This document shows positions 183-12,851 of a stretch of 13,027 nt of DNA, one piece after another. Made by a program: the position numbers and the translations under genes. The stretch comes from Armatimonadota bacterium (GTDB taxonomy: Bacteria; Armatimonadota; Zipacnadia; Zipacnadales; UBA5352): contig JAYENL010000063.1 of assembly GCA_034722055.1 (NCBI GenBank), positions 1 to 13,027 on the forward strand. The letters are read 5' to 3'. Position 1 is the first letter of the stretch; each line of letters starts with the position of its first letter. Below the pieces are notes generated by a model that was given only the letters and a program-made list of their open reading frames with translations, was not told the DNA's origin and searched no databases.

Positions 183-1100
183 CTACGGCGGCAGCACGCT
201 CAGGCCGCGCTCGCGGCAGATCGCCTCCAGCCGCGCGACGCGCTCCGGGGACTGCCGAGTGGCGTCGGGCATGGGGTCGGTCTGGCCGACCCACGGATAC
301 TTGCCGCCGGTGGCGGGATTGAAGGGCAGCAGTGAGATGCACTCGGCGCCCAGGTCCGCCGCCAGCTCCGCCAGCTCAGCGACGGTGTGATCCTCGTCGG
401 TGATCCCCGGGATCAGCGGGACGCGCACGATGACATCCGCGCCCTCCTCGATGAGCCGGCGCAGGTTCTCGATGATCCGCTCATTCGAGGCGCCGGTGTG
501 CTGCTCGTGGATCGCCGGGTCGGGGTGCTTGAGGTCATACAGGAACAGGTCCACGGCCCCCGCGAGGCGCTGGAGCGTCTCCCAGGAGGTGAGCCCGCAG
601 GTCTCCATCGCCACGTGGATGCCGGCCTTGGCGCAGAGGGTCGCCACGGCGTACGCGAAGTTCGGCTGAGCGGTTGGCTCGCCGCCGGTGAGCGTCACGC
701 CTCCACCGGTGCGCTCGAAGAATGGCATCAGCCGCCGGGCGGCGTCGGCGATCTCGCCCGCGGTCACGGTCTCCCCGCAGATCTCCAGCGCCTCGGCCGG
801 GCAGATCGCCACGCAGGCCCCGCACAGGCGGCATCGCGTTCGGAGCTCGGGCTCGATGGGCCCGAACGCGCGGATGGCCTCCGGGCAGGCGTTCAAGCAG
901 GCCCCGCAGTACACGCAGCGCGTCTGGTACCACACGACCTCTGGCCGAGGGCTGTGGGACTCGGGGCTGTGGCACCAGGTGCAGCGCAGGGGGCAGCCCT
1001 TGAGGTAGAGGTTCATGCGCACGCCGGGGCCATCGTGGACGGCCGTCTCGTCGATGTCGAAGATGACGCCCTCCACCGCGCGCACCTCGTCGGACATCAC
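183..1100 (-). CDS. Glycyl-radical enzyme activating protein (radical SAM) with a 2x[4Fe-4S] ferredoxin insert
   Basis: HDGPGVR, KGCPLRCTWCHSPES (CxxxCxxC), ferredoxin motifs CVYCGACLNACP and CRLCGACVAICP, GGVTLTGGEP, ETCG, LFLYDLK, VRVPLIPG. Start is GTG at 1100 (overlapping the GRE TAG stop by 1 nt) or ATG at 1097; GAGGAG at 1112-1117. Confidence 0.95.
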   Translation of the reverse strand: MMSDEVRAVEGVIFDIDETAVHDGPGVRMNLYLKGCPLRCTWCHSPESHSPRPEVVWYQTRCVYCGACLNACPEAIRAFGPIEPELRTRCRLCGACVAICPAEALEICGETVTAGEIADAARRLMPFFERTGGGVTLTGGEPTAQPNFAYAVATLCAKAGIHVAMETCGLTSWETLQRLAGAVDLFLYDLKHPDPAIHEQHTGASNERIIENLRRLIEEGADVIVRVPLIPGITDEDHTVAELAELAADLGAECISLLPFNPATGGKYPWVGQTDPMPDATRQSPERVARLEAICRERGLSVLPP

Positions 1101-3454
1101 TACCAGCCCAGCTCCTCGCGCGCGATGACCTCCTCCTGGGCCTTGGGCGGCAGCAGCACGAAGGGCACCAGGTAGCCGCCGATGCGCACCAGCAGGTCCC
1201 GGTACTCATCCGGGCTCTCCTGCGCGGCGCGCATGGCCTCGGTGGAGGCGAGGTTGAACTGAAGCTGGTAGGCGCCGAGGTCCAGCGCGGCCTCCGAGAG
1301 GCCCTTGAGGGCGTCCACACCGTGGTCCTCGTCGAGCACGTTCGCCTGGAAGCGGACGTTGCAGGTGGTGCCGCCCAGCGCCCGGGAGTGGTCGAACCGC
1401 TCGGTGATGGAGCGCACCAGGGAGGGGAAGCCCTTCAGCTTCACCCCGGTGCAGCTCATGATGGAGTTGGCCAGCGGCTCGCCTGCGCGGCGGCCGTCGG
1501 GCGTGGCCGGCGTCATCTCGCCGTAGCGGATCCAGACCGTCCAGCCTAGAAAGCCCGGCAGGAAGGGCCCGCCCAGCAGATTCGTATGGCCCTCGATGAG
1601 GTCGCACCATCCCCCGGCGACCTCCCCGAACAGCTCGTTGACCAGCGGCTCATCATTCCCGTGCTTGGGGCACTCGCGCTGGATGGCCCGGCGGAGGTCC
1701 TCGTGGCCCTCGAAGTCCTCGCGGATCGCCGCGCGGAAGTCCTCGAGCGTGGCCTCCCCGCGCTGGGCAACCAGCGTGCGGATCGCGGCCAGCGCGTCTA
1801 CCACGTTGGAGACGCCGACCGCCTCCGGCTGGATGAAGTTATACAGCGCGCCGCCGTGGGAGATGTTCCGCCCGGTCTCAATGCAGCCCTCGATGAAGCA
1901 TGACAGCAGCGGGAAGGGCCGGTGCTGTGCCTGCAGGTGCAGGTCCCGGTTGCACTGGATGACGGCTCCATGGACGGCGTGGCCCAGCACGGCCATGAAG
2001 GCCGCGCGCAGCTCGGCGTACGTCTGCGGGACGCCGTTGCCGGGCCGTTTGGAGGGGCCGGTCTCCGTCCCGGCCCGGTCGTTTGCTGGCAAGGAACGAC
2101 CGCAGGCAGGGATGCCTGCGCCACGAGCAGTCCAACTCTGCGGCGGGTCGCTCAGCCGCAGACCCACGTCCGCGGCGAAGTCTCGGGCGTGGCCCTTCTC
2201 GGGATGCACGCCGCCGAAGAGCGCGTAGAGCAGGCACATGGCAACGTTGACGTAGGGCCAGGCCACGTGCGGGTTGGAGCGGCCCATGATGGAGGTCTCG
2301 GTGCAGGTGCTGGGCAGATGGTCCACGGCGTGCTCGAAGGGCACGCCCCGGCGCACCAGGCCCCTCACGATGACGTCGGAGTTGAACAGCGAGGGCTGGC
2401 CCCTGCCGTTGCGCAGCAGAGAGATCGCCCGGCGCATGAAGGCCTCGTCGATGTCCGCGTGCCAGGAGATGTCGATGCCCGGGAAGTACATCTGCACGCG
2501 GTCGGCCAGCTCCAGGATCCGCCAGGACAGCTCATTGGTGGCGTCGGAGCCGTCGGGCCGGCGGCCGCCGATGACCAGGATCACCGCGCTCATCGACGGG
2601 CCCTGGAACTCGTTGCACTTGATCAGCAGTTGCGCCAGGAGGTCCTCCGCCAGCTCTTCGTCGAGGGTCCCGGCCTGGCGCTCGGCCTCCCAGAAGCGCC
2701 ACAGCCACTGATCCAGCCGCCCCGGCCCGAAGCAGTGGTGGTGGGTGGAGTTCTCCAGCGCGCATCCCAGGAACATGAACCAGCCGAGCTGAATGGCCTC
2801 CCGGAAGCTGCGCGGGGGCTCGTGCGCCACGCGCCGGCAGACGCCCGCGATCTCCCGCAGCTCCTCCGCCCAGCGCTCGTCCTCAGCCTCACCGGCCATC
2901 TGCTCGGCGAGGTCGGCGTAGCGCTCGATGAGGGTCTGCAGGCCGGTCAGGGCGATCCGCGCCGCCTCGTAGAAGTCCTGCTTCTCCGGCGTCTGCGGGT
3001 CGCCCGGCACCAGCGCCCGCAGTGCATCGTCGATGCGCCGCAGGAGCCCATCCAGGCCCTGCTGGCAGACGGTGGGGTAGTCCGGCGCCATGTGCCCCTC
3101 GGAGACGAAGCCGCGCCAGTGCTGGCGCCCCAGGTACTCCCGCGCCTCCTGCAGCGTCTCGGCCATCTCCTCGTCAGGGTGCGTGTTGGGGTGCCAGCCG
3201 GCCAGGACCTCGCCCTCGCGGATGCGCACGGGCATCTGTTGGAAGAGCCGGGCCACGGCCTTCGCCACGCGCACCTGCCGGCGCGGCTCGCCCTCGGTCT
3301 CGCGGAAGCTCTCCGCCATGATGATGTCGCGCTCGTCGAAGCTGTTGGCGTCGGCGAGCACGTCCTCGCGCAGGGCCCGCGACCAGTCCGAGAGCCCGGA
3401 GGGGCCCACGGGCTGGGGGAGGGCGTCAGTTGTCCGGTCCGTGGTGACTGCCAT
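1100..3454 (-). CDS. Glycyl radical enzyme (PFL-like superfamily), substrate unknown
   Basis: C-terminal Gly loop YRDLLVRIGGY (Gly760), Cys loop LPSTCTET (Cys384, Glu386), GHMAPDY, PGRLDQ, PKHGND, ATPDGRRAGEPLA, QLQFN. AGGAG RBS at 3463-3467. Adjacent to a GRE activase. Confidence 0.95.
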   Translation of the reverse strand: MAVTTDRTTDALPQPVGPSGLSDWSRALREDVLADANSFDERDIIMAESFRETEGEPRRQVRVAKAVARLFQQMPVRIREGEVLAGWHPNTHPDEEMAETLQEAREYLGRQHWRGFVSEGHMAPDYPTVCQQGLDGLLRRIDDALRALVPGDPQTPEKQDFYEAARIALTGLQTLIERYADLAEQMAGEAEDERWAEELREIAGVCRRVAHEPPRSFREAIQLGWFMFLGCALENSTHHHCFGPGRLDQWLWRFWEAERQAGTLDEELAEDLLAQLLIKCNEFQGPSMSAVILVIGGRRPDGSDATNELSWRILELADRVQMYFPGIDISWHADIDEAFMRRAISLLRNGRGQPSLFNSDVIVRGLVRRGVPFEHAVDHLPSTCTETSIMGRSNPHVAWPYVNVAMCLLYALFGGVHPEKGHARDFAADVGLRLSDPPQSWTARGAGIPACGRSLPANDRAGTETGPSKRPGNGVPQTYAELRAAFMAVLGHAVHGAVIQCNRDLHLQAQHRPFPLLSCFIEGCIETGRNISHGGALYNFIQPEAVGVSNVVDALAAIRTLVAQRGEATLEDFRAAIREDFEGHEDLRRAIQRECPKHGNDEPLVNELFGEVAGGWCDLIEGHTNLLGGPFLPGFLGWTVWIRYGEMTPATPDGRRAGEPLANSIMSCTGVKLKGFPSLVRSITERFDHSRALGGTTCNVRFQANVLDEDHGVDALKGLSEAALDLGAYQLQFNLASTEAMRAAQESPDEYRDLLVRIGGYLVPFVLLPPKAQEEVIAREELGW
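2051..2124. repeat. REPIN-like triple hairpin lying in frame inside the GRE gene
   Basis: GGAG + GGGCCGG-8nt-CCGGCCC (2051-2076); CGGTCGTT...AACGACCG (2076-2102); CGCAGGCA-GGGA-TGCCTGCG + CCAC (2101-2124, read as GTGG + hairpin on minus). Confidence 0.7.
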
Positions 3455-3556: not shown

Positions 3557-3581
3557 GTGGCACGGACACTCTTGTCCGTGC
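3557..3581 (+). repeat. REP-like palindrome, type A (GTGG foot), between sulfatase and GRE
   Basis: GTG-GCACGGACA-CTCT-TGTCCGTGC, perfect 9-bp stem. Followed by GCCGTTGCCGTCA (3582-3594), whose reverse complement recurs at 12791-12803. Confidence 0.7.
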
Positions 3582-3630
3582 GCCGTTGCCGTCAGCTTTC
3601 AGCTTGAGACTTGTAGCTTGCGCCTCCCGT

Positions 3631-4959
3631 TCAGTCGAACGGCGCCCGCTGCTGTGAGATGAGCTGGTTCTGCCCCTCAGCCCAGGGGTCGAGGATCTCG
3701 CGCAGGTACCAGACCTCGTCCGGGTTCTCGTCGGCCAGGTTGGTCTGCTCGCTGAAGTCCTCGGTGATCTTTGACAGCCACACCGGCTCGGGGTTCTCGC
3801 GGCCGTCGCGGAAGATGCCGTTCAGCACCAGCTTCCAGTCCCCGCGGCGGATGGCGCGCTGGCCGCGGAGGTTCCAGGCGATCCAGTCATGCGGGTTCTC
3901 TGCGCCCTCGGTGAGCATGGGCAGGAGGCTGAGGCCGTCGAGGTCGTAGCGCCCGGGACCGCCGCCGGCCGCCTCCAGCATGGTCGGAAAGATGTCCATC
4001 ATGATGCCGACCTCGCTGGAGACCCGGCCGGCCGGGAAGGTGCCCGGCCAGCTCATGATGGCGGGCATGCGGATGCCGCCGTCCCAGAGCGTGCCCTTGG
4101 AGCCCCTCAGCCCGCCGGTGGTGCCGCCGTAGTAGGGGTCCCTGGTCCCGTCCATCCAGTTGCGCGTCTCGCGCGAGGGCCCGTTGTCGGATGAGAAGAA
4201 GATGATGGTGTCCTCGCGAATATCCGCGGCCTCCAGCTCGTCGAGGATCTCCCCGACGCCGTCGTCGATGCCCGCGATCATGGCCGCCATGACCTGCTTG
4301 TCCCAGGGCAGGTGGTCGAAGCGCGCCATGTACTCGGCCGGCGCGTGCATGGGGTAGTGCGGCGCGTTGTAGGAGGTGTAGAGGAAGAAGGGCTGCCCGT
4401 CGCGGGCCCGCTCGCGGATGAAGTTCACGGAGCGCTCGGTGATCATGGAGGTCATGTACTCCCCGTTGCGCCACACCTCCTCCCCGTTCTCCCACAGGTC
4501 GTGAAGGGGGTCCACGCCGCGGCCCTGCATGTAGTAGAACAGGTGCGAGTAGTAGTCGATGCAGCCGGCGAGGAAGCCGAACCACTCGTCGAAGCCGAAG
4601 TTGTGCGGCTGCGAGCGCGGGGTCACGCCCAGGTGCCACTTGCCGAACAGCGCGGTGCGGTAGCCCTCCTCGCGCAGCGCCGAGGCGATGGTGGGCTTGC
4701 CGTCGGGCAGGCCCTCGCTCCCGCGATCGCCCGGCAGCACGCCGTTGACGCCGGCGTGGTCGGGATACTGCCCGGTCATCAGCGAGGCCCGGGAGCCGGA
4801 GCACACCGCGCAGTTGGAGTACCAGTCGGTGAAGCGCACCCCCGAGTCCGCCAGGGCGTCCAGGTGCGGGGTGCGCACGTGCGTCTCGCCCATGCACGAC
4901 AGGTCGCCGTAGCCGAGGTCGTCGGTGTAAATGATGATGATGTTGGGGCGGTCAGCCAT
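3631..4959 (-). CDS. Formylglycine-dependent (S1) sulfatase / arylsulfatase A-like hydrolase, cytoplasmic
   Basis: RPNIIIIYTDDLGYGD, CSGSRASLMTG (Cys53), GYRTALFGKWHLG, PFFLY..YNAPHYP, SSDNG, KGTLWDGGIRMP, GDWKL. No signal peptide; GAGGAG upstream of the ATG. Confidence 0.93.
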   Translation of the reverse strand: MADRPNIIIIYTDDLGYGDLSCMGETHVRTPHLDALADSGVRFTDWYSNCAVCSGSRASLMTGQYPDHAGVNGVLPGDRGSEGLPDGKPTIASALREEGYRTALFGKWHLGVTPRSQPHNFGFDEWFGFLAGCIDYYSHLFYYMQGRGVDPLHDLWENGEEVWRNGEYMTSMITERSVNFIRERARDGQPFFLYTSYNAPHYPMHAPAEYMARFDHLPWDKQVMAAMIAGIDDGVGEILDELEAADIREDTIIFFSSDNGPSRETRNWMDGTRDPYYGGTTGGLRGSKGTLWDGGIRMPAIMSWPGTFPAGRVSSEVGIMMDIFPTMLEAAGGGPGRYDLDGLSLLPMLTEGAENPHDWIAWNLRGQRAIRRGDWKLVLNGIFRDGRENPEPVWLSKITEDFSEQTNLADENPDEVWYLREILDPWAEGQNQLISQQRAPFD

Positions 4960-5080: not shown

Positions 5081-6097
5081 TCAGGCCTCAGGCCACTGCA
5101 GGATCACGCCCAGGCAGGGCTCGCCTTCGCCGATGGCCGTCAGGTAGGCCGTCTCCGGCTCGGAGAAGGGCAATCGGTGGGTGATCATGGCGTCGAGGGC
5201 GAGGGCGTCCTCGGCGGCGAGCCGCAAGAACAGCCGGCCGTTGGCGTGGCGGTCCCAGCGGTTGCGAGGGTCGCCCGGCTCCGGGTGGGCGGAGACGATG
5301 GCGCCCACGCAGGTGAGGGCCTTGAGGTGCAGGGCCATCATGTCCACCTCCGCCGGCCACCGGGCCGAGCCCAGGGCAACCACCGTCCCGAACCTGCGCG
5401 CCAGAGCGAAGGCGGTGTCGTAGGTCTCCGTGAGGCCGGTGACCTCGTAGACGATGTCGGCTCCGCGGCCGCCGGTCAGCTCCCGGACGCGCTCCGGCGC
5501 GTCCTCCCGCCGGGGGTTGACGGCATGGGTGATGACCCCCGCCTCGCTGGCCAGCTCCAGCCGGAAGTCATCCAGGTCCAGGCCAATGACCGCCCCCGCT
5601 CCGGCCAGGCTGAGGTAGCGGCAGGCGAGCTGGCCCAGCACCCCCAGGCCGATGACCGCGACCTCCTCGCCGAGCTGCGGGTGCGCCATGCGCACACCGT
5701 TGAGCACCGTGCAGCCCAGCACGCAGAAGGTGGCCTGCTCGTCGCTGACGCCCCCGGGGATCTGCCACAGCGCGGGATGCTCCTCGGGGAGGACGCTCAG
5801 CAGCCGATGGGGGCTGCTGGAGACCACGCGGTCGCCGACCTGAAGGCGGGTAACGCTCTCGCCCACCTCCTCCACCACACCCGCGTTGGAGTAGCCCGGC
5901 GTGGTGGGATACCGCGGCATCACGGAGCCGTCGGCGCGGTGCCACTGGCGGCCGACGTAGCTGGCCCCCTCGGTGCCGGCGCTGATGAGCGAGCGGCGGG
6001 TGCGCACGCGAATCTGGTGGGGGCCGAGCGGGGGCACGTCGGCGTCCTGGATCTCTACGTGGCGCGGCGCGATAAAGGTGATCTGCGGGTTGGTCAT
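5081..6097 (-). CDS. Medium-chain dehydrogenase/reductase (GroES + Rossmann; ISAGTE / GYS subfamily)
   Basis: SLISAGTE, YPTTPGYSNAGVV, GDRV, Rossmann VIGLGVLG followed by an acidic residue (GLDLD, suggests NAD), GADIVYEVTG, MITHRLPF. Start moved from 6148 to ATG 6097 (GGGGG SD at 6104-6108), 338 aa. Confidence 0.9.
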   Translation of the reverse strand: MTNPQITFIAPRHVEIQDADVPPLGPHQIRVRTRRSLISAGTEGASYVGRQWHRADGSVMPRYPTTPGYSNAGVVEEVGESVTRLQVGDRVVSSSPHRLLSVLPEEHPALWQIPGGVSDEQATFCVLGCTVLNGVRMAHPQLGEEVAVIGLGVLGQLACRYLSLAGAGAVIGLDLDDFRLELASEAGVITHAVNPRREDAPERVRELTGGRGADIVYEVTGLTETYDTAFALARRFGTVVALGSARWPAEVDMMALHLKALTCVGAIVSAHPEPGDPRNRWDRHANGRLFLRLAAEDALALDAMITHRLPFSEPETAYLTAIGEGEPCLGVILQWPEA

Positions 6098-6160
6098 GTG
6101 GCACCCCCGGCTGTGAGTGTGCGGGCCGTCAGGCCCCTGAGGTGCCACTGTTCGCCGCGG

Positions 6161-7426
6161 TCAACGGCGCCGCCTGCACCGGGCGATGAGAACGGCGGCG
6201 CCGAGGCTGAGCATCGCCAGCGTTGTGGGCTCGGGGAAGATGTCGCGGTAGGTGGACAGCCAGTAGTCGCCGGTGGCTCCGCTACCGCCATACCTCACGT
6301 TCAGGTAGTAGTAGCCCGAGGTGCCCGCCTCCCACCACAGGTTGGAGGTGTAGGTGCCACCGGACCCGCCCCAGAAGTCATCGCAGTACACCAGCTCGGG
6401 GAGGTCGGGGTCATAATGGAGGTCGATGCGGGTGTCCACTGCCTGGTCGTAGCCCTCTTCATCCTGCGTCATCGCCGTCAGCACGTCGTACTGGTCGAGC
6501 CAGATGCGGTACCAGTCCTCGTCGCTGGTGGAGCCGAGGCTGGCATAGACGGTCTCCATGGGACTGTCGATCAGCTCAGCCAGGTCATAGCTGTTGCCGA
6601 AGTCGGTATCCTCCTGCTTCAGCCCATCGTGGTCGGGGGCGAAGTAGATGGCGTCACTCACGAAGTAGGCATCGCCGAAGCTCTCGCCCTCCTCGCACGT
6701 CTCCCAGCGCCACCACTCCTGCCCGTCGTAGGTGGTGGCGGTGATACCGAAGCCGCTTTCGGCGCTGCCGACCCCATTCTGCCAGGTGTCGCGGACCGCG
6801 TACCACTTGTCCCCGCTGTCATCGATCCAGTAGCCGTAGGACATTACGGAGTGCCCGGCACCCTTGAGGCTCAGGTCCAGGAGCATGGGCCGGCCGCCAT
6901 CGATCTCCGCCACCAGGTCCAGGAAGTCGAAGGTGCCGGCGTTGAAGGATCCGAAGTCCGGGTGGTAGCCGTAACGCGGCAGGGAGTGGAAGGCGTAGGA
7001 TTCGTCGATGCCGGTGCCGGGATCGTCCCACGCCGCGTAGCGCCGCATGCCGGTGGCAATGTTCCAGGTGTTCGAGCCGCCACTGTTGGGATCGGTGTGG
7101 AAGAAGCAGCCGAGGCTGTTGGGGGCGTTGGTGTGCGTGCACTCGTTCTTGACGTAGGTTGCGGAGTTATGCTCATCGGAGCTGATGAGCTGGTAGATCT
7201 CCTCGACGTTGCCGTCGTTATCGTTGGCGTACAGGGGGGCGGTCCCGTCCCACAGGTTCTCGTATCCGGTCTGGCGGTCCCAGTAGCCGAAGACCATGCC
7301 GCCGGAGGTGGGGCTGCAGCCATGGTACCAGTTGTAATCCGGCACCTCGTCGAGGTACACGGGCGTATCGGCCACCGCGCCGGCGCAAAGCGCCAACGCG
7401 AGAACCATAAGCAGCAGATGCCGCAT
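6161..7426 (-). CDS. PEP-CTERM-sorted surface protein with a papain-like (C10/C39-like) cysteine peptidase domain and a PPC-like beta-domain
   Basis: Signal peptide MRHLLLMVLALALCAGAVA; candidate triad HGCSPTS (Cys), GHSVMSYGY (His), VRDTW (Asp); PPC-like SDEDWYRI...DTRIDL...GYYYLNV; C-terminus FPEPTTLAMLSLGAAVLIARCRRRR (PEP, TM helix, Arg cluster). GGGAG RBS at 7433-7437. Confidence 0.85.
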   Translation of the reverse strand: MRHLLLMVLALALCAGAVADTPVYLDEVPDYNWYHGCSPTSGGMVFGYWDRQTGYENLWDGTAPLYANDNDGNVEEIYQLISSDEHNSATYVKNECTHTNAPNSLGCFFHTDPNSGGSNTWNIATGMRRYAAWDDPGTGIDESYAFHSLPRYGYHPDFGSFNAGTFDFLDLVAEIDGGRPMLLDLSLKGAGHSVMSYGYWIDDSGDKWYAVRDTWQNGVGSAESGFGITATTYDGQEWWRWETCEEGESFGDAYFVSDAIYFAPDHDGLKQEDTDFGNSYDLAELIDSPMETVYASLGSTSDEDWYRIWLDQYDVLTAMTQDEEGYDQAVDTRIDLHYDPDLPELVYCDDFWGGSGGTYTSNLWWEAGTSGYYYLNVRYGGSGATGDYWLSTYRDIFPEPTTLAMLSLGAAVLIARCRRRR

Positions 7427-7601: not shown

Positions 7602-9239
7602 CTACCTGGTCGCAGGAAGACGCGGCGGTGGAGGAGGCTTGCGGAGTCGATAGACCGTCATCTCCGGGGCCGCGCGCACCTCGTCGAGGCCCTCGACCTC
7701 CACCAACAGGTGTGCCTGCTGGCCGTCGGCGGCCACCCAGCCGCAGCCGGCCTCCCGCAGGATCGCCAGCCGTCGCTGTGGCGACGTGTCCTCGGCAAAC
7801 AGCTCCGCGGCCATCTCGCGCTTCCGCCCCACGTCCACGGTGACGTGCCAGTGTCCCATGTGCACGTGCCGCAGGGCGTAGCGGGCCAGGAAGGTGCCGG
7901 TGAGATGCGTCGTCATGAAGCGGGCCTCGGCGGGTGCGGCGGCCTCGATCCACTCGAAGGTCCGGGCCCAGTCGGCGGGGATGACCGGCTCGTTAGTCGT
8001 TGACAGGCGGGCCAGCAGCCACACGTCCGTCGGCAGGATGCCCACCAGCAGCAGGGCCATGGCGCAGGCCGTGGCGCGACGGGCCACCATCCGCAGCCGC
8101 GACTGCAGCCACGGCACCACCCACCAGGCCAGTCCGGCCGCCGCCAGGATCGCCAGGGGCAGGTGCAGGCCCTCCACGCACCGCCGCTCAAAGGGGACGA
8201 GCGGATAGGAGTACACCGCCACCGCGGCCACCAGCGGCCAGAAGATCATCAGCCAGTCGCGCGCGGTCTCTCGCCGGCGGCGGCCGATGGCGAGCCGCCC
8301 GCCGATGGCCAGCGGGAGGATGAGCCCGAGCCCCAGCAGGTAGGCGTCCGGCGGCGGAGACCTCAGCACGTTCTGCTCAGCCCACGAGGCCACCAGGGGG
8401 TTGGTGGTCCGCTGCCACCAGAGGATTCCCACCGCTGGGATAGTCCCTGCCAGCGCCCACAGGTTGATCGCGGCACCGCGCCACCCCTCGGGCCTCGCGA
8501 TGCGGCAGTACACAAAGTGTCCCACCAGCAGCGGGGCGATCACCGCCACGTCGTAGGGGTGGATGAGGGCCAGCAGCGCCAGCGTGGCCGCCGCCCCTGC
8601 CGCCAGCCACCCCGACGGGCGCCGGTAGGCCCGCAGCAGCAGCATCAACAGCAACGCCAGCAGCGACAGCGCCAGGGCGAAGTGTGGCAGCCACAGGGAG
8701 TGATAGCCCCACATCTCCGGCATGATGTCCGAGCTCATCAGCACGTGCCGGCCGGTCAGGGCGTTGACCCCATCGGCCACCGCGGCAAGGCCGCTGCCCA
8801 GCGCCGCCGCTACGAATCCGAAGGCCCGGGCCGCCGGCTCGCTGAAGAACTCGCGCATCAGCACCCACACCAGAAGCAGATACGTCAGCCCCCACAGCAG
8901 GCGCACCAGGTGATAGGTGACAAGGATCGGCACGGGGAGCGCCCGGGCCAGCAGGCCGATGGCGAGCCACGGCAGGCTGGGCAGCAGCGGGGGGACCCGC
9001 TCCGCGGTCTGATAGACCTCCACCAGCAGGGCGCCCCGGCGCACCTGCTCCACGTAGGTCAGGTAGAGGTTCTGATCGTCAACCTGCTCCACGATCCCGG
9101 CGAAGTGCTCGCCGGGCTTGGCCGTGAGCCGCTGCCAGGCATGGGGGATGAGGGTGGAGAGGATGATGCCGCCGCTGAGCAGGAGCACCCAGGTGGGGAA
9201 GAGCCTCTGGCGCGACTGCGGCGCGTCGCCGCCGGTCAC
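7602..9239 (-). CDS. Polytopic membrane protein, probable GT-C superfamily glycosyltransferase
   Basis: About a dozen hydrophobic segments; acidic DDQNLY motif in the loop after TM1; HPYD; C-terminal soluble domain (FEWIEA..., GHWH, LREAGCGWV, TVYRL) as in GT-C-type proteins. Likely GTG start at 9239 in a GTGA overlap with the upstream stop (GAGGA at 9250-9254); the ORF track starts at 9263. Confidence 0.65.
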   Translation of the reverse strand: MTGGDAPQSRQRLFPTWVLLLSGGIILSTLIPHAWQRLTAKPGEHFAGIVEQVDDQNLYLTYVEQVRRGALLVEVYQTAERVPPLLPSLPWLAIGLLARALPVPILVTYHLVRLLWGLTYLLLVWVLMREFFSEPAARAFGFVAAALGSGLAAVADGVNALTGRHVLMSSDIMPEMWGYHSLWLPHFALALSLLALLLMLLLRAYRRPSGWLAAGAAATLALLALIHPYDVAVIAPLLVGHFVYCRIARPEGWRGAAINLWALAGTIPAVGILWWQRTTNPLVASWAEQNVLRSPPPDAYLLGLGLILPLAIGGRLAIGRRRRETARDWLMIFWPLVAAVAVYSYPLVPFERRCVEGLHLPLAILAAAGLAWWVVPWLQSRLRMVARRATACAMALLLVGILPTDVWLLARLSTTNEPVIPADWARTFEWIEAAAPAEARFMTTHLTGTFLARYALRHVHMGHWHVTVDVGRKREMAAELFAEDTSPQRRLAILREAGCGWVAADGQQAHLLVEVEGLDEVRAAPEMTVYRLRKPPPPPRLPATR

Positions 9240-11395
9240 AGCTTGATCGTCCTCTCGTCCCACTCCTCCAGGAACCTCCTCTGACGCGGCCGCTGCCTGG
9301 GGATCTGGGGCTTGAGCTCCACGGAGGACAGCCAGCCGGCGTGAGGGCTGGTAAGCTGCATCGACAGCAGCTTCACCTCACCCGGCCGCAGGCTCACGAA
9401 GACCACCGGCCGGTTCAGCGCGATGGCGTCGTCGCTGAAGTGGAAGGCGCCCACGTAGCTGCGCACCACGCCGCCGGGAGTGAAGCTGAGGGTGTGCATA
9501 TCCAGCGGCTGGGTGCGGACCTCGAAGATCAGCTCCACCTCCGCGCCCGTGTTGTTCCACAGCGCCAGGATGCCCTCGTCCCCGCGCAGGAAGGGCCGGA
9601 AGCCCACCGCAACGCCATCCCCTAGCCCGATCTCCTCGCTCTGCCGCACCGCGCCCAGCGGCACCGCCCCGGCCAGCTCGCGGCCCAGCTCCGCGAAGGC
9701 CGTCGCCAGCGTCTCCCGCCGGGTGCCGTCAGGGGCCAGCAGCGCGAAGCCCTCCGCCCCCGGCGGGCAGTCGGTCGCGCGCGCCGGGAGCATGAAGCCC
9801 GTGGCGCCCTGGTAGGCGCAGGCCACCAGCGTTCGCGCCAGCACCGCCGCGTCCAGCGCCTCGGAGCCGGTGGGCGTGGCCGCCAGGCCGGCGAAGAACA
9901 TCGGCAGCCGCGCCTCCGCACGGATCGCCCCGGTGACCTCGGCCACGTTCAGAGACCGCGCCACCTCCACCCAGCCTGGCTGTGGCGCCGCCACGCCCTT
10001 CCGGCCCACGCTCACCGCCCCCGCCGGTCGGGCGGCAATGGGCGGCAGCCGCAGCGACGGCGCCGCGATGCTCCCCTCCGCCCCCAGCTCACACGCCGTC
10101 GCCAGGTCGTCCTGGCTCAGGGTCGGCGGGGAGCCGGGCTGCAAGTCCAATGGGGGACTGAGCACGAACGGCCCGCCCTCCAGCGCCGCGTGCAGCTTCC
10201 GCGTGGCCGCGACCGCCCCCGGCGGGGCCGCGCCCCCACGCTCATGGTGCAGCATCATCGCCTCTGCGGCCCCGGCGTGGGCCGCCGCATCTTCCGCGGG
10301 CCCTTCGAACCACCCGGGGCTCAGCAACAGCAGCCGGCTGGCGGAGTCCGGCAGAGCCGGGGCCTCGTCGCCGGGGGCCAGCCGCGCGGCGTGAAGCTGG
10401 GCGTCGAGGCCCGCCACCGCCGCCAGCTCCCGGCTCGACGGCGGCTCTGACAGCCACGCCAGCCCGGTGGCCGGATAGACGGGCGTGACGTGCACACGCA
10501 CCGGCGCCGACGCCTCCTCCCCCCGGCTGCGGAAGGTCGCGCGAGCGTGGTGCTCGCCCAGCGCGAAGCACTGCAGCGAGGCGCTGAAGACCGTGGTGCC
10601 GCCGCCCAGGATCGTCACCGTGCGCTCTGGGACGAAGCAGCCCGGCGGGCCCGCCACGGAAACGGTCAGCTCCTTGTCGATGTCGCCGCGGTTGGTGATG
10701 GTCAGCTTCAGCCCGCCGCGGCAGCCGCGAGGCTGCCTCACCTCCGCCGGCATCGCCACCTCCATGCCGGCGACGTTCACGACCAGCTCCCGGAGCCTGC
10801 CCGCCCTGCGCTCCCGGGCGTCTATCAGCCCCTCCGGCTGCCAGTGGGCCGGCAGGTCCTCGGGGACGATGGGGGCGTGCTCGCTGCTCGCCGGCTCCGG
10901 CTCGATGGCCTCGACCTCGATGGCGTCCACCAGCCACCGCCCCTCGCCGCCGTCGGTGCCGACGGCCAGCCGTATACGCCCGACGGGCGCGAAGACCTCC
11001 GCCGCCACGGACCGCCAGCCTCCGCCCACCGCCTCGCCGGTCAGCGCCACCTGCGCGGCCGGTCGCTCACCGTCGGCCGCCATCACGCCCAGCAGCAGGC
11101 GGCTCTCGCAGCGCCTCCCCTCGATCGCCCGCGCGCGCAGTCCAAGGCGCAGCCAGCCGGCCGGCCGCTCCGAGCCGGCCTCGGAGACCACCCAGCCCGT
11201 GCTGATGCTCAGGGCCGACCCGCCTGGAGCGCCCGCGACCTGCTCCACCGAGGCCTCGGAGTCCACAGCGGCCCAGGCCTGCAGCCCGTCCTCGAAGCTC
11301 GGATTCTGTGGGAAGCCCTCGATGGGCTCCCCGTCCGCCACCACCGCCAGCAGCGCCACGCACACGCAGATAAGGGCACGCCCGGTCATCGCCAC
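9236..11395 (-). CDS. Secreted multidomain hypothetical protein (CBM4/9-like N-domain, Ig-like domain, degenerate glycoside-hydrolase-like region)
   Basis: Signal peptide (RALICVCVALLAVVADG), NPSFEDG...W and WLVDAIEV typical of galactose-binding-like CBMs, LTITNRGD Ig-like strand, C-terminal ILALWN...VSLRPGEVKLL beta-sandwich. GGAG at 11404-11407; tightly packed between its neighbours. Confidence 0.6.
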   Translation of the reverse strand: MAMTGRALICVCVALLAVVADGEPIEGFPQNPSFEDGLQAWAAVDSEASVEQVAGAPGGSALSISTGWVVSEAGSERPAGWLRLGLRARAIEGRRCESRLLLGVMAADGERPAAQVALTGEAVGGGWRSVAAEVFAPVGRIRLAVGTDGGEGRWLVDAIEVEAIEPEPASSEHAPIVPEDLPAHWQPEGLIDARERRAGRLRELVVNVAGMEVAMPAEVRQPRGCRGGLKLTITNRGDIDKELTVSVAGPPGCFVPERTVTILGGGTTVFSASLQCFALGEHHARATFRSRGEEASAPVRVHVTPVYPATGLAWLSEPPSSRELAAVAGLDAQLHAARLAPGDEAPALPDSASRLLLLSPGWFEGPAEDAAAHAGAAEAMMLHHERGGAAPPGAVAATRKLHAALEGGPFVLSPPLDLQPGSPPTLSQDDLATACELGAEGSIAAPSLRLPPIAARPAGAVSVGRKGVAAPQPGWVEVARSLNVAEVTGAIRAEARLPMFFAGLAATPTGSEALDAAVLARTLVACAYQGATGFMLPARATDCPPGAEGFALLAPDGTRRETLATAFAELGRELAGAVPLGAVRQSEEIGLGDGVAVGFRPFLRGDEGILALWNNTGAEVELIFEVRTQPLDMHTLSFTPGGVVRSYVGAFHFSDDAIALNRPVVFVSLRPGEVKLLSMQLTSPHAGWLSSVELKPQIPRQRPRQRRFLEEWDERTIKL

Positions 11396-11398
11396 ATC

Positions 11399-12574
11399 TC
11401 AGACTCCGCCACTCTCGGACATGACTTCATACACAGCGTACAGATTGCGCCACGCCATGGCCAGGGCTACCAGCGTCATGATAGCGCCCAGCGCCAGCGC
11501 CCCCATGGACATCCCGACGGTGAGGGACCCCACCGCCGCCTCCCGTCGCTCGGACGCCATGGTTGCTGCCGAGTCCACGCTGGCCTCCAGGCTTCCCGCC
11601 CGCTCGGCGCCCGCCAGCATCTGGCGCACCCGCCGCGACAGCACCGGCACTCCGGTGAGGGCCTCCCGGAGGCTGCGGCCGTGGCGCACCTGCTCGGCGG
11701 CTCGCACGGACGCCTGCCGCAGGCCCGGGTGGCCCGACGCCTCGCCCCCCAGCTCCAGGCCTCGGTCCAGCGCGACTCCCGCACGTTCCGACAGCGAGAG
11801 CGTCTGCAGGAACCGCGCCACCACCGACCACCGCGCCATGTCGCCCACGATCGGCAGCGCGGCCGTCACCCGCACCCGCAGACCTTCGGCCGCCGGCAGG
11901 TTCATCACGCCGCGCAGCACCACCAGCGCCGCGAGGAGCACCAGCAGCCCGGGAAGCAGCCTGGTCGCCGCCAGCTCCAGGTACCACCTCATCCCTCGCG
12001 CCACCATCCACGGGAAGGGCGCCACCAACACCGCCAGCACCAGCACCGCCCCGTAGTAGAGGCGCACCCAGCGCAAGCGCGCCTCCACGTTCGCTTCGGT
12101 TTCGTACTGATCCGCCAGTGACTGCAACACCTCCGGGAGGCCACCCAGCTCCTCGCCGGCCCGCACCAGCGCCACGACGTGCCGCGGGAAGAGCCCCGGG
12201 TAGCGCGCCAACAGCTCCGCCAGCGCTGCCCCCTCCGACAGCCGCGGGGCCATCTCCTCCGCCGCCCGGGCCAGTCGCCCGTCGTGGATGGCGGTGGACA
12301 GCTCCCGCATCGCCTCGTGCGCGGTGACGCCGCTGCGGATGAGGCTGGCGAGCTGACTGAAGAACTGCGCCAGGCTCGCCGGCGCAGCGGGGAAGGCCCG
12401 ATGCCGGAAGCCGGCCGCCCACCGCTCCACGTCCGGCTCCGCGGCGGTGATCTGGATGGGGCGGAGATCCCGCTGCCGAAGTTCGCGGGCCGCCGCGGAG
12501 CGATCCGTCGCCTCCAGCGTGCCGCTTCGCCGCGTCCCGCCGCCGTCCTGGGCCACGAACTGGAATCTGGGCAT
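11399..12574 (-). CDS. Type II secretion system F / type IV pilus PilC family inner-membrane platform protein
   Basis: MPRFQFVAQDGGGTRRSGTLEA..A..ELR N-terminus; FFSQLASLIRSGV; ALVRAGEELGGLPEVL..LAD.YE; second repeat RFLQTLS...AGV and MLAGAERAGSLE; TM segments. ATG at 12574 with GGAGG at 12581-12585 (391 aa); the ORF-track extension to 12850 is rejected. Confidence 0.9.
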   Translation of the reverse strand: MPRFQFVAQDGGGTRRSGTLEATDRSAAARELRQRDLRPIQITAAEPDVERWAAGFRHRAFPAAPASLAQFFSQLASLIRSGVTAHEAMRELSTAIHDGRLARAAEEMAPRLSEGAALAELLARYPGLFPRHVVALVRAGEELGGLPEVLQSLADQYETEANVEARLRWVRLYYGAVLVLAVLVAPFPWMVARGMRWYLELAATRLLPGLLVLLAALVVLRGVMNLPAAEGLRVRVTAALPIVGDMARWSVVARFLQTLSLSERAGVALDRGLELGGEASGHPGLRQASVRAAEQVRHGRSLREALTGVPVLSRRVRQMLAGAERAGSLEASVDSAATMASERREAAVGSLTVGMSMGALALGAIMTLVALAMAWRNLYAVYEVMSESGGV

Positions 12575-12605
12575 ACACCGCCTCCCTGCCACCGTGGTCA
12601 CGGGC

Positions 12606-12634
12606 ATTGTACTCGTGGTGTCGCGGGAGTTCAA
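12606..12634 (-). promoter_or_regulatory. Sigma70-type promoter for the GspF/PilC operon
   Basis: Minus strand TTGAAC (12634-12629), 17 nt, TACAAT (12611-12606), about 20 nt upstream of the SD. Confidence 0.7.
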
Positions 12635-12733
12635 TGCGTATTGCTGCTGGAGTGCGAATCCGCAGTTGGGCCGGCCTCCTCCGGCTGCTTCGCATCCGTC
12701 GTCGTGCGGCCCCTCCGACGGCGACGGCCCACG

Positions 12734-12773
12734 GCAAACGGCCGGCGGGCTGGGCAGCCCGCCGCTCCGTACG
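12734..12773 (-). repeat. REP-like palindrome, type B, copy 2
   Basis: Plus strand GCAAACGGCC-GGCGGGCT-GGGC-AGCCCGCC-GCTCCGTACG; 36/40 identical to 5-44. Confidence 0.75.
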
Positions 12774-12851
12774 ACATGGCGACAACGGCATGACGGCAAC
12801 GGCAGGCAGCGCACGGGCCCCCCTGAGCCACCGCATCCCTGCCGTACCAAG

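Follow-up and report, generated by a model that had tools for sequence, protein, structure and literature searches.

The window analysed here is the whole 13,027-nucleotide stretch of contig JAYENL010000063.1 (assembly GCA_034722055.1) from an Armatimonadota bacterium. It carries a glycyl radical enzyme (GRE), a member of the PFL-like superfamily (IPR004184), together with its own activase. Both genes (open reading frames, ORFs) are intact, and the start of the activase overlaps the stop of the GRE. The enzyme falls outside every named GRE class tested. Moreover, it has lost the cap helix between strands beta2 and beta3 and about 55 N-terminal residues before the beta1 histidine, and both losses extend to a wider unstudied lineage. 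A sequence-only reading of this DNA, which proposed a candidate new GRE class with non-canonical catalytic loops, had overlooked these odder traits. The features on which the argument rests are the following, with GD denoting glycerol dehydratase.

1100-3454, minus strand: GRE (P0001), PFL-like and glycine-radical domains, 784 residues (ORF call, Pfam)
183-1100, minus strand: cognate GRE-activating radical SAM enzyme, 305 residues (TIGR02494, motifs)
3092-3199, minus strand: residues 86-121, region of the N-terminal deletion (length comparison with reference GREs)
3092-3094, minus strand: His121, strand beta1 (aligned to GD His164, HypD His160, CutC Asp216 and IslA Gln193)
2732-2740, minus strand: His239-His240-Cys241, strand beta2 (His240 at the GD His281 / HypD Asp278 position)
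2585-2614, minus strand: residues 281-290, site of the absent beta2-beta3 cap helix (sequence alignment, model)
2303-2305, minus strand: Cys384, predicted thiyl-radical site (aligned to GD Cys433)
2297-2299, minus strand: Glu386 of the CxE motif (aligned to GD Glu435)
2252-2254, minus strand: Tyr401 (aligned to CutC Tyr506 and HypD Tyr450)
1532-1543, minus strand: Trp638 (IslA Phe682 / HypD Thr645 position) and Trp641 (His or Asn in references)
1175-1177, minus strand: Gly760 in RIGGY, predicted glycyl-radical site (aligned to GD Gly763)

The GRE matches PF02901 with 417 bits (cut-off 24) and PF01228 with 56 bits (cut-off 22). The activase reaches 295 bits against TIGR02494 (cut-off 174) and displays the motifs HDGPG, CX3CX2C (36-43), GGE and two auxiliary cluster motifs of the form CX2CX2CX3C. 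One GRE and one GRE activase were found in the host genome, which is 93% complete, and no PFL was found in it. DNA of the locus is present in four brine metagenome runs, all from one study, and no RNA dataset occurs among the listed holders of that DNA. A promoter scan near the GRE gave no signal above shuffle level.

The missing cap contrasts with a 2026 review, which states that the cap helix is kept by all GREs and lines the substrate channel. Ser334 of this helix is essential in HypD, and its counterparts are Phe333 in GD and Phe389 in CutC (PMC7077986). The corresponding segment counts 12 residues in the enzyme, a deletion of 12, against 24-25 in GD, propanediol dehydratase (PD), YbiW, PflD, HypD and CutC, and it is 12-13 residues long in all 22 sampled members of the clade to which the enzyme belongs. 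In the enzyme of this locus the preceding helix runs directly into beta3. The predicted model, an alpha/beta barrel of ten strands by fold match with a pLDDT (predicted local distance difference test) of 92.4, has no helix between residues 279 and 292. Of 33 PDB matches to residues 215-345, 32 are GRE-family sequences; 31 span the region, and each of these exceeds the enzyme there by 6-13 residues. This cap comparison excludes BSS, which did not align across the region, as well as PAD, HpfG and aminoacyl radical enzymes. The N-terminal loss is apparent from residues 86-121, a stretch of 36 residues that corresponds to 90-94 in six reference GREs and 99 in a C-S-lyase-family protein.

Many uncharacterised GRE clades exist. 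The clade described here is discrete, with its next relatives about 40% identical. In a library clustered at 50% identity, one full-length cluster scored 956 bits, the runner-up reached 468 bits at 39% identity, and a clade profile run over 401 host-phylum genomes gave 19 with scores of 1078-1329 bits, followed by 606. Titles of the metagenome-assembled genomes that bear the clade include Armatimonadota (among them Ca. Zipacnadia and WS1), Planctomycetota, Poribacteria, Desantisbacteria and, with unchecked binning, two archaeal bins. Zipacnadia are described as fermentative, acetogenic anaerobes, with glycyl radical enzymes unmentioned in the main text (PMC10290634). The ESM Atlas returned only generic PFL-family clusters. 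Open-access literature, supplements excluded, held no description of the clade or of cap-less GREs, although unnamed members may stand in similarity networks or in the tree of PMC11528403.

Several observations accompany this distribution. Clade members L020 and L022 (also L179, L183 and L225) come from bins titled Thermococci and Hadarchaeota (binning unchecked). These loci adjoin a gene for a 660-residue protein without a Pfam or NCBIfam match, and three of them carry an alpha-L-fucosidase-like gene. Many host-phylum genomes (e.g., G303, G382 and G387) yielded 20-41 GRE-profile candidates at first look; as scoring was limited to two candidates in each genome, the figures do not count gene copies, but a GRE expansion is possible. 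In addition, the library representatives P0168, P0189, P0221 and P0180 read RPAAH, RVSTW or RVAAY in the Gly-loop columns; they could be aminoacyl radical enzymes or else reflect misalignment or gene breakage.

Residue conservation was assessed in an alignment of 120 sequences, namely the query and its best 119 relatives (50-89% identical) out of 183 proteins at E <= 1e-50; denominators of 117, 119 or 120 are the rows that cover a given residue. The motifs named in the sequence-only reading all lie where it placed them: ENSTHHHCF at residues 234-242, followed by one Gly and PGRLDQ at 244-249; HLPSTCTETS at 379-388, with Cys384 at 2303-2305 and Glu386; VAWPYVN at 397-403; FLGWTVW at 635-641; and VRIGGY at 756-761, with RIGGY at 757-761. 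Invariant in 119/119 rows are Ser382, Cys384, Glu386, Tyr401, Trp638, Trp641, Arg757, Gly759, Gly760 and Tyr761, so the loop variants are not private to this genome. His121 is kept in 117/117, His239 and Cys241 in 120/120, Glu119 in 116/117 and Glu544 in 118/119. Within the His-rich and Trp-rich segments, conservation is lower for His238 (28/120), His240 (94/120) and Trp399 (93/119). In the model, VAWPYVN forms a strand (398-403), and FLGWTVW reaches from the end of a strand into the beginning of helix 640-647.

The catalytic loops are conserved across the clade but only mildly unusual. The Gly loop, R757-I-G-G760-Y761, departs from the published C-terminal fingerprint RVXG[FWY] (PMC11528403) by one conservative V-to-I change. 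A set of 161 GREs from elsewhere in the superfamily includes 20 with RI in the Gly loop, 20 with the second Gly, five with RIGG and 20 whose Cys loop reads STC, and RIAGY occurs in three of the four proteins fetched from the IslA/IseG and HpsG C-S-lyase family. A PFL-type Cys-Cys pair is absent from the Cys loop, which has Thr383-Cys384 instead. The CxE motif is indeed retained, as C384-T-E386 in every row, but its use as a mark of eliminases or dehydratases was too narrow: eliminases and isomerases have it, and so do the decarboxylases HPAD and IAD (PMC13450708; PMC13598205).

A 183-sequence tree was built with the cap columns excluded from sequences chosen by similarity to the query, and the trees do not include HPAD, IAD, BSS, HplG, HpyG, HpzG or AAD. 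All 22 clade members group together (support 1.0, stem 0.70) within a 63-sequence group (support 0.963) whose cap segments measure 13-20 residues. Six references of characterised classes and four C-S-lyase-family proteins fall in a 67-sequence group (support 0.92), in which the cap segment spans 27-33 residues in 66 of the 67. Deep branches are weak, and a 110-sequence short group has a support of only 0.53. In a 55-row IQ-TREE tree, the clade receives a support of 100, and the clade with its sisters 99. The clade stands apart from GD and PD, and from every other characterised GRE included, in both best trees. Forcing it to join GD and PD lowered the score by 57.6 log units, a placement not rejected by the approximately unbiased (AU) test (p-AU 0.133). 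The cap may have been lost more than once: in the 55-row tree, four short-cap sequences fall within capped neighbourhoods, and one sequence with a cap sits with the short ones.

The sisters are themselves uncharacterised cap-less GREs (P0122, P0123, P0125, P0135 and others). They share both deletions and the beta1 histidine, which is kept in 22/22 clade and 41/41 sister sequences, as well as Cys loops of the xSxCxE type and the strands WVAxxY and GF(L/F)xW. One sister group reads GHxCFCP, in which the counterparts of His239 and Cys241 are kept. The sisters differ in being at most about 43% identical to the clade, and both Gln542 and Trp641 are found only in the clade, with His replacing the latter in 39/41 sisters. 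On beta3, an aromatic residue usually packs on the substrate (CutC Phe395, HypD Phe340, IslA Trp374; PMC8473560). The equivalent position is non-aromatic in 63/63 sequences of the wider short-cap group, whereas 34/67 capped sequences have an aromatic there. Conversely, Trp occupies position 638 in 22/22 clade members and 33/41 sisters, but in 0/67 capped sequences. According to PMC8473560, IslA Phe682 takes up the room that the cap residue Phe389 has in CutC. Since Trp at this IslA Phe682 position is frequent in the clade and its sisters and absent from the capped sequences, Trp638 may compensate for the lost cap.

None of the named classes tested accommodates the enzyme. Twelve NCBIfam GRE models match, and none exceeds its cut-off. 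The best is PFL2/glycerol dehydratase (416 bits vs 678), and the others include HypD (341 vs 1100), PflD (311 vs 1109), HpsG (293 vs 1000), CutC (260 vs 1050), IAD (197 vs 1100), HPAD (182 vs 1150) and PFL (56 vs 994). The best fold match is PD (9rco; Z 44.1, root-mean-square deviation (rmsd) 2.0, 716 aligned residues, 29% identity). GD from C. butyricum (1r8w; Z 42.4, rmsd 2.1, 30% identity) ranks first by sequence, and GD and the propanediol dehydratases (9rco, 5i2a) together share the fold at Z 42-44 and rmsd 2.0-2.1. The clade keeps the GD positions His164, Cys433, Glu435 and Gly763, has His at the His281 position in 94/120 and has an adjacent activase. However, it is only about 30% identical to GD (32.5% over the local alignment), compared with 59% between GD and PD. 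Phe333 is deleted together with the cap helix, and further GD residues are replaced: Tyr339 by Ser or Ala without any aromatic, Asp447 by Ala398, Tyr640 by Leu636, Ser282 by Cys and Ser642 by Trp. These five residues line the GD pocket, as does Phe333.

Other eliminases and isomerases show a similar mixture. The sugar isomerases PflD and YbiW (8id0, 8yjo, 8id7; Z 38.9-40.3) have the same CxE and beta1 His, and PflD likewise lacks an aromatic at the GD Tyr339 position. They differ in sequence (31-34% identity), in the cap segment, which both retain, and in their PTS and sugar phosphatase neighbours, neither of which recurs beside the clade among the neighbours scanned. HypD (6vxc) shares the His160, CxE and Tyr450 positions, but its Asp278 is replaced by His and Thr645 by Trp, Asp339 and Phe340 are also replaced, and Ser334 is deleted. 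CutC has CxE and the Tyr506 position in common with the clade; Asp216 becomes His, Phe395 becomes Ser or Ala and Phe389 is deleted. The C-S lyases IslA/IseG and HpsG have the same CxE, but the sulfonate-binding Arg189, Gln193 and Arg678 of IslA and its Trp374 are not kept. Arg189 corresponds to Ala, Val or Gly (residue 117, by residue count), Gln193 to His121 and Arg678 to Gly634, and no Arg stands at the IslA sulfonate sites in the aligned clade sequences. Overall, the substrate-binding residues of GD, CutC, HypD and IslA are mostly replaced.

GRE pockets are tailored to their substrates. Because this isolated clade has invariant pocket residues of its own, a reaction not yet described is very likely, and a substrate new to GREs is likely. 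We give about an even chance to the hypothesis that the enzyme takes part in anaerobic carbohydrate breakdown by breaking a C-O bond of a bulky, uncharged molecule of the sugar or polyol type, either in a dehydration or in an isomerisation that opens a ring. C-O cleavage is favoured because the closest solved structures are C-O eliminases and the positions of GD His164, Cys433 and Glu435 are kept, and because PflD, a sugar isomerase that cleaves C-O, has the same His and no aromatic at the Tyr339 position. PflD and YbiW cleave the C-O bond of a ring substrate, and GD His164 protonates the leaving hydroxyl (PMC13450708). The site on beta1 is a common one, occupied by GD His164, HypD His160, CutC Asp216 and IslA Gln193 (PMC8473560), and His160 is essential in HypD (PMC7077986). 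His121 and CxE would thus fit eliminase or isomerase chemistry. A neutral substrate is favoured because Arg is absent from the IslA sulfonate sites.

The genes, catalytic residues, activase motifs and both deletions are present at the locus, and a radical relay can be sketched from the wider family. The activase would install a radical on Gly760, which would pass to Cys384. The resulting thiyl radical could then take a hydrogen atom from a CH-OH carbon, while Glu386 and His121 would move protons as an acid-base pair. Breakage of the adjacent C-O bond would yield a ketone, an aldehyde or a deoxy-keto sugar. The weakest steps of the proposal concern the pocket, which may be enlarged by the missing cap and by small residues at 289-290 and 398, with Trp638 perhaps supplying part of the packing for which other eliminases use a Phe of the cap. 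Both the type of bond and the size of the substrate are conjectural here, and the substrate would be neutral and larger than glycerol.

Several points weigh against this hypothesis. CxE also occurs in decarboxylases and in C-N and C-S lyases, and fold scores separate the eliminases and isomerases little, with all of them between Z 36 and 44. Pocket residues were assigned by sequence alignment alone, and strand shifts make such prediction unreliable (PMC8473560). His240 is variable, whereas His239, Cys241, Gln542, Glu544 and Trp641 are invariant or nearly so without an assigned role. Neighbourhoods were compared at 104 clade loci (39 from genomes, 65 from metagenomes) with crude ORF calling, and Pfam scans covered 115 of 275 neighbour ORFs at the genome loci and 93 chosen from 206 ORFs at the metagenome loci. 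The activase lies downstream of the GRE at 36/39 genome loci, two of the three misses being cut off, and at 43/44 metagenome loci with room for it. Beyond the activase, no gene is common across the clade among the scanned neighbours, and the context therefore names no substrate. In favour of the hypothesis, frequent neighbours are glycoside hydrolases and sulfatases, sugar oxidoreductases and aldolases, and a sodium:solute symporter; the general setting is carbohydrate catabolism. This is also the background of these genomes, as the host alone has 49 sulfatase-like, 26 URO-D-like and 14 Zn-dehydrogenase-like ORFs.

C-N cleavage, with an amino sugar, an amino alcohol or a quaternary amine as the substrate, appears unlikely. 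In such an enzyme, Trp638, Trp641 and Tyr401 would bind the cation, and Glu119 or Glu544 would balance its charge. All five residues are conserved, Tyr401 sits at the CutC Tyr506 / HypD Tyr450 position and no basic residue stands at the known pocket positions. CutC and HplG use the same CxE chemistry (PMC13450708). Against it, the clade has His in place of CutC Asp216 and Ser or Ala in place of the cation-pi residue Phe395, and the CutC model scores far below its cut-off.

A joint pathway with the sulfatase directly upstream, in which the GRE would act on a sulfated sugar or its desulfated product, is quite unlikely. Where the GRE shares 75% identity or more, a sulfatase orthologue (79-94% identical) lies upstream of it in 9/9 loci; in a sample of the phylum, an orthologue of at least 54% identity occurs in 14/19 clade-bearing genomes compared with 27/382 others, an association confounded by kinship since close kin are not independent. 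The link does not extend further: the orthologue is found at 0/54 more distant loci with at least 1.2 kb of upstream sequence, three of which have an unrelated sulfatase, and it lies on a different contig from the GRE in 6/14 genomes that have both. The number of sulfatase-like ORFs in the host and the lack of Arg at known anion-binding positions also argue against this pathway. The sulfatase and the genes beyond it are arranged as follows.

3631-4959, minus strand: sulfatase directly upstream of the GRE (linked in close kin, not clade-wide)
5081-6148, minus strand (that of the GRE): zinc-binding dehydrogenase (orthologue next to the GRE only in L001)
6161-7426, minus strand: PEP-CTERM protein with a weak C39-like match
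7602-9263, minus strand: membrane protein without a family match
9236-11395, minus strand: 719-residue protein without a family match
11399-12850, minus strand: PilC/GspF-like protein

It is very unlikely that Cys241, with His239, serves a reductive step or a metal site, as in a deoxygenation resembling that of ribonucleotide reductases (RNRs). Both residues are present in 120/120 sequences and also in the GHxCFCP sister group, and RNRs have the same fold, with a second cysteine in the barrel that serves as proton and electron donor (PMC4390871). That cysteine lies on the first strand, betaA (bioRxiv 2022.04.23.489257), whereas Cys241 lies on the second. Furthermore, class III RNRs match the fold at only Z 18-20, and no gene for thioredoxin, formate or another reductant recurs among the scanned neighbours.

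We regard as highly improbable that the enzyme is a decarboxylase or another C-C-cleaving GRE acting on an aromatic acid. CxE is shared with HPAD and IAD, the predicted pocket is rich in aromatics, and the arylacetate decarboxylase 7e7l is the top match for residues 215-345 taken alone. Over the whole fold, however, 7e7l (Z 37.1) and 2y8n (Z 39.7) score lower, the IAD and HPAD models remain far below their cut-offs, and the window leaves no space for a small-subunit gene between GRE and activase. Finally, a decayed gene that forms no radical and whose odd loops are private damage is hardly credible and is rejected: a private repeat insertion does interrupt one GRE loop, but it is in frame within a low-confidence surface loop, and decay is rejected because the motifs are invariant over 119-120 sequences, dN/dS (the ratio of nonsynonymous to synonymous substitution rates) against the nearest relative L001 is 0.16, and the activase is intact and co-conserved.

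If the enzyme does cleave a C-O bond in a neutral sugar or polyol, the anaerobic turnover of carbohydrates by microbes of sediments and brines would gain a step. The unit of two genes is compact, with no small subunit needed as far as the window shows. The cap-less clade and the wider lineage around it make the role of the cap helix in sealing radical intermediates directly testable. In the 2026 review, no PFL-like GRE with an established function in archaea is recognised, and the clade has members in archaeal-labelled bins (binning unchecked). A bolder proposal, which we consider rather unlikely, is that the clade belongs to a large cap-less lineage, of which it is only the visible part, that lost an N-terminal subdomain along with the helix, rebuilt its pocket with Trp, His and a second Cys and performs radical chemistry, possibly reductive, on substrates beyond the size known GREs accept, namely glycosides, oligosaccharide ends or modified glycan sugars. 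It would then represent a new class of GRE among anaerobes that degrade glycans in sediments, brines and digesters, some members being in archaeal bins.

Other neighbours were considered as partners and set aside. The sodium:solute symporter is not a required partner: the 12 loci where it follows the activase all belong to one lineage (GRE 87-100% identical, several duplicates), an orthologue of at least 51% identity occurs in 1/19 clade genomes and 16/382 others, and no symporter above 31% identity was found in the host genome. Three further candidates are limited to lineages or belong to expanded families, namely a macro-domain gene at 12 loci, a second radical SAM gene at five and URO-D-like genes at eight. 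The second radical SAM gene, a weak YydG-like match, directly follows the activase in L033, L034, L035, L195 and L212, two of which are titled Poribacteria. At nine loci (L016, L021, L023, L030, L031, L176, L181, L222 and L226), 300-1100 bases separate GRE and activase, a gap that sometimes holds an unannotated ORF; those scanned had no family match.

Palindromic repeats occur within and around the GRE. The one inside the gene is located as follows.

2033-2083, no strand assigned: palindromic repeat, in frame, in a GRE surface loop; private to this genome and not a clade feature

This repeat has 133 copies of at least 35 nucleotides genome-wide, and by crude gene calling it is the sole copy within a gene. 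Its insertion lengthens the surface loop 451-472, where model confidence is low, by a net 23 residues. Beside it, at 2094-2125, lies another hairpin that has about 10 copies in the genome. In run X2, one contig bridges the repeat site with a net 15 bases fewer. Two other relatives, P0011 and P0005, have insertions of their own in the same loop, and the P0011 peptide resembles that of the window repeat, which suggests that the loop is a hotspot for coding repeat insertions. Another palindromic repeat, with about 130 copies, lies between sulfatase and GRE at 3557-3590, and further high-copy palindromic repeats lie within positions 1-170, downstream of the activase at the contig end.

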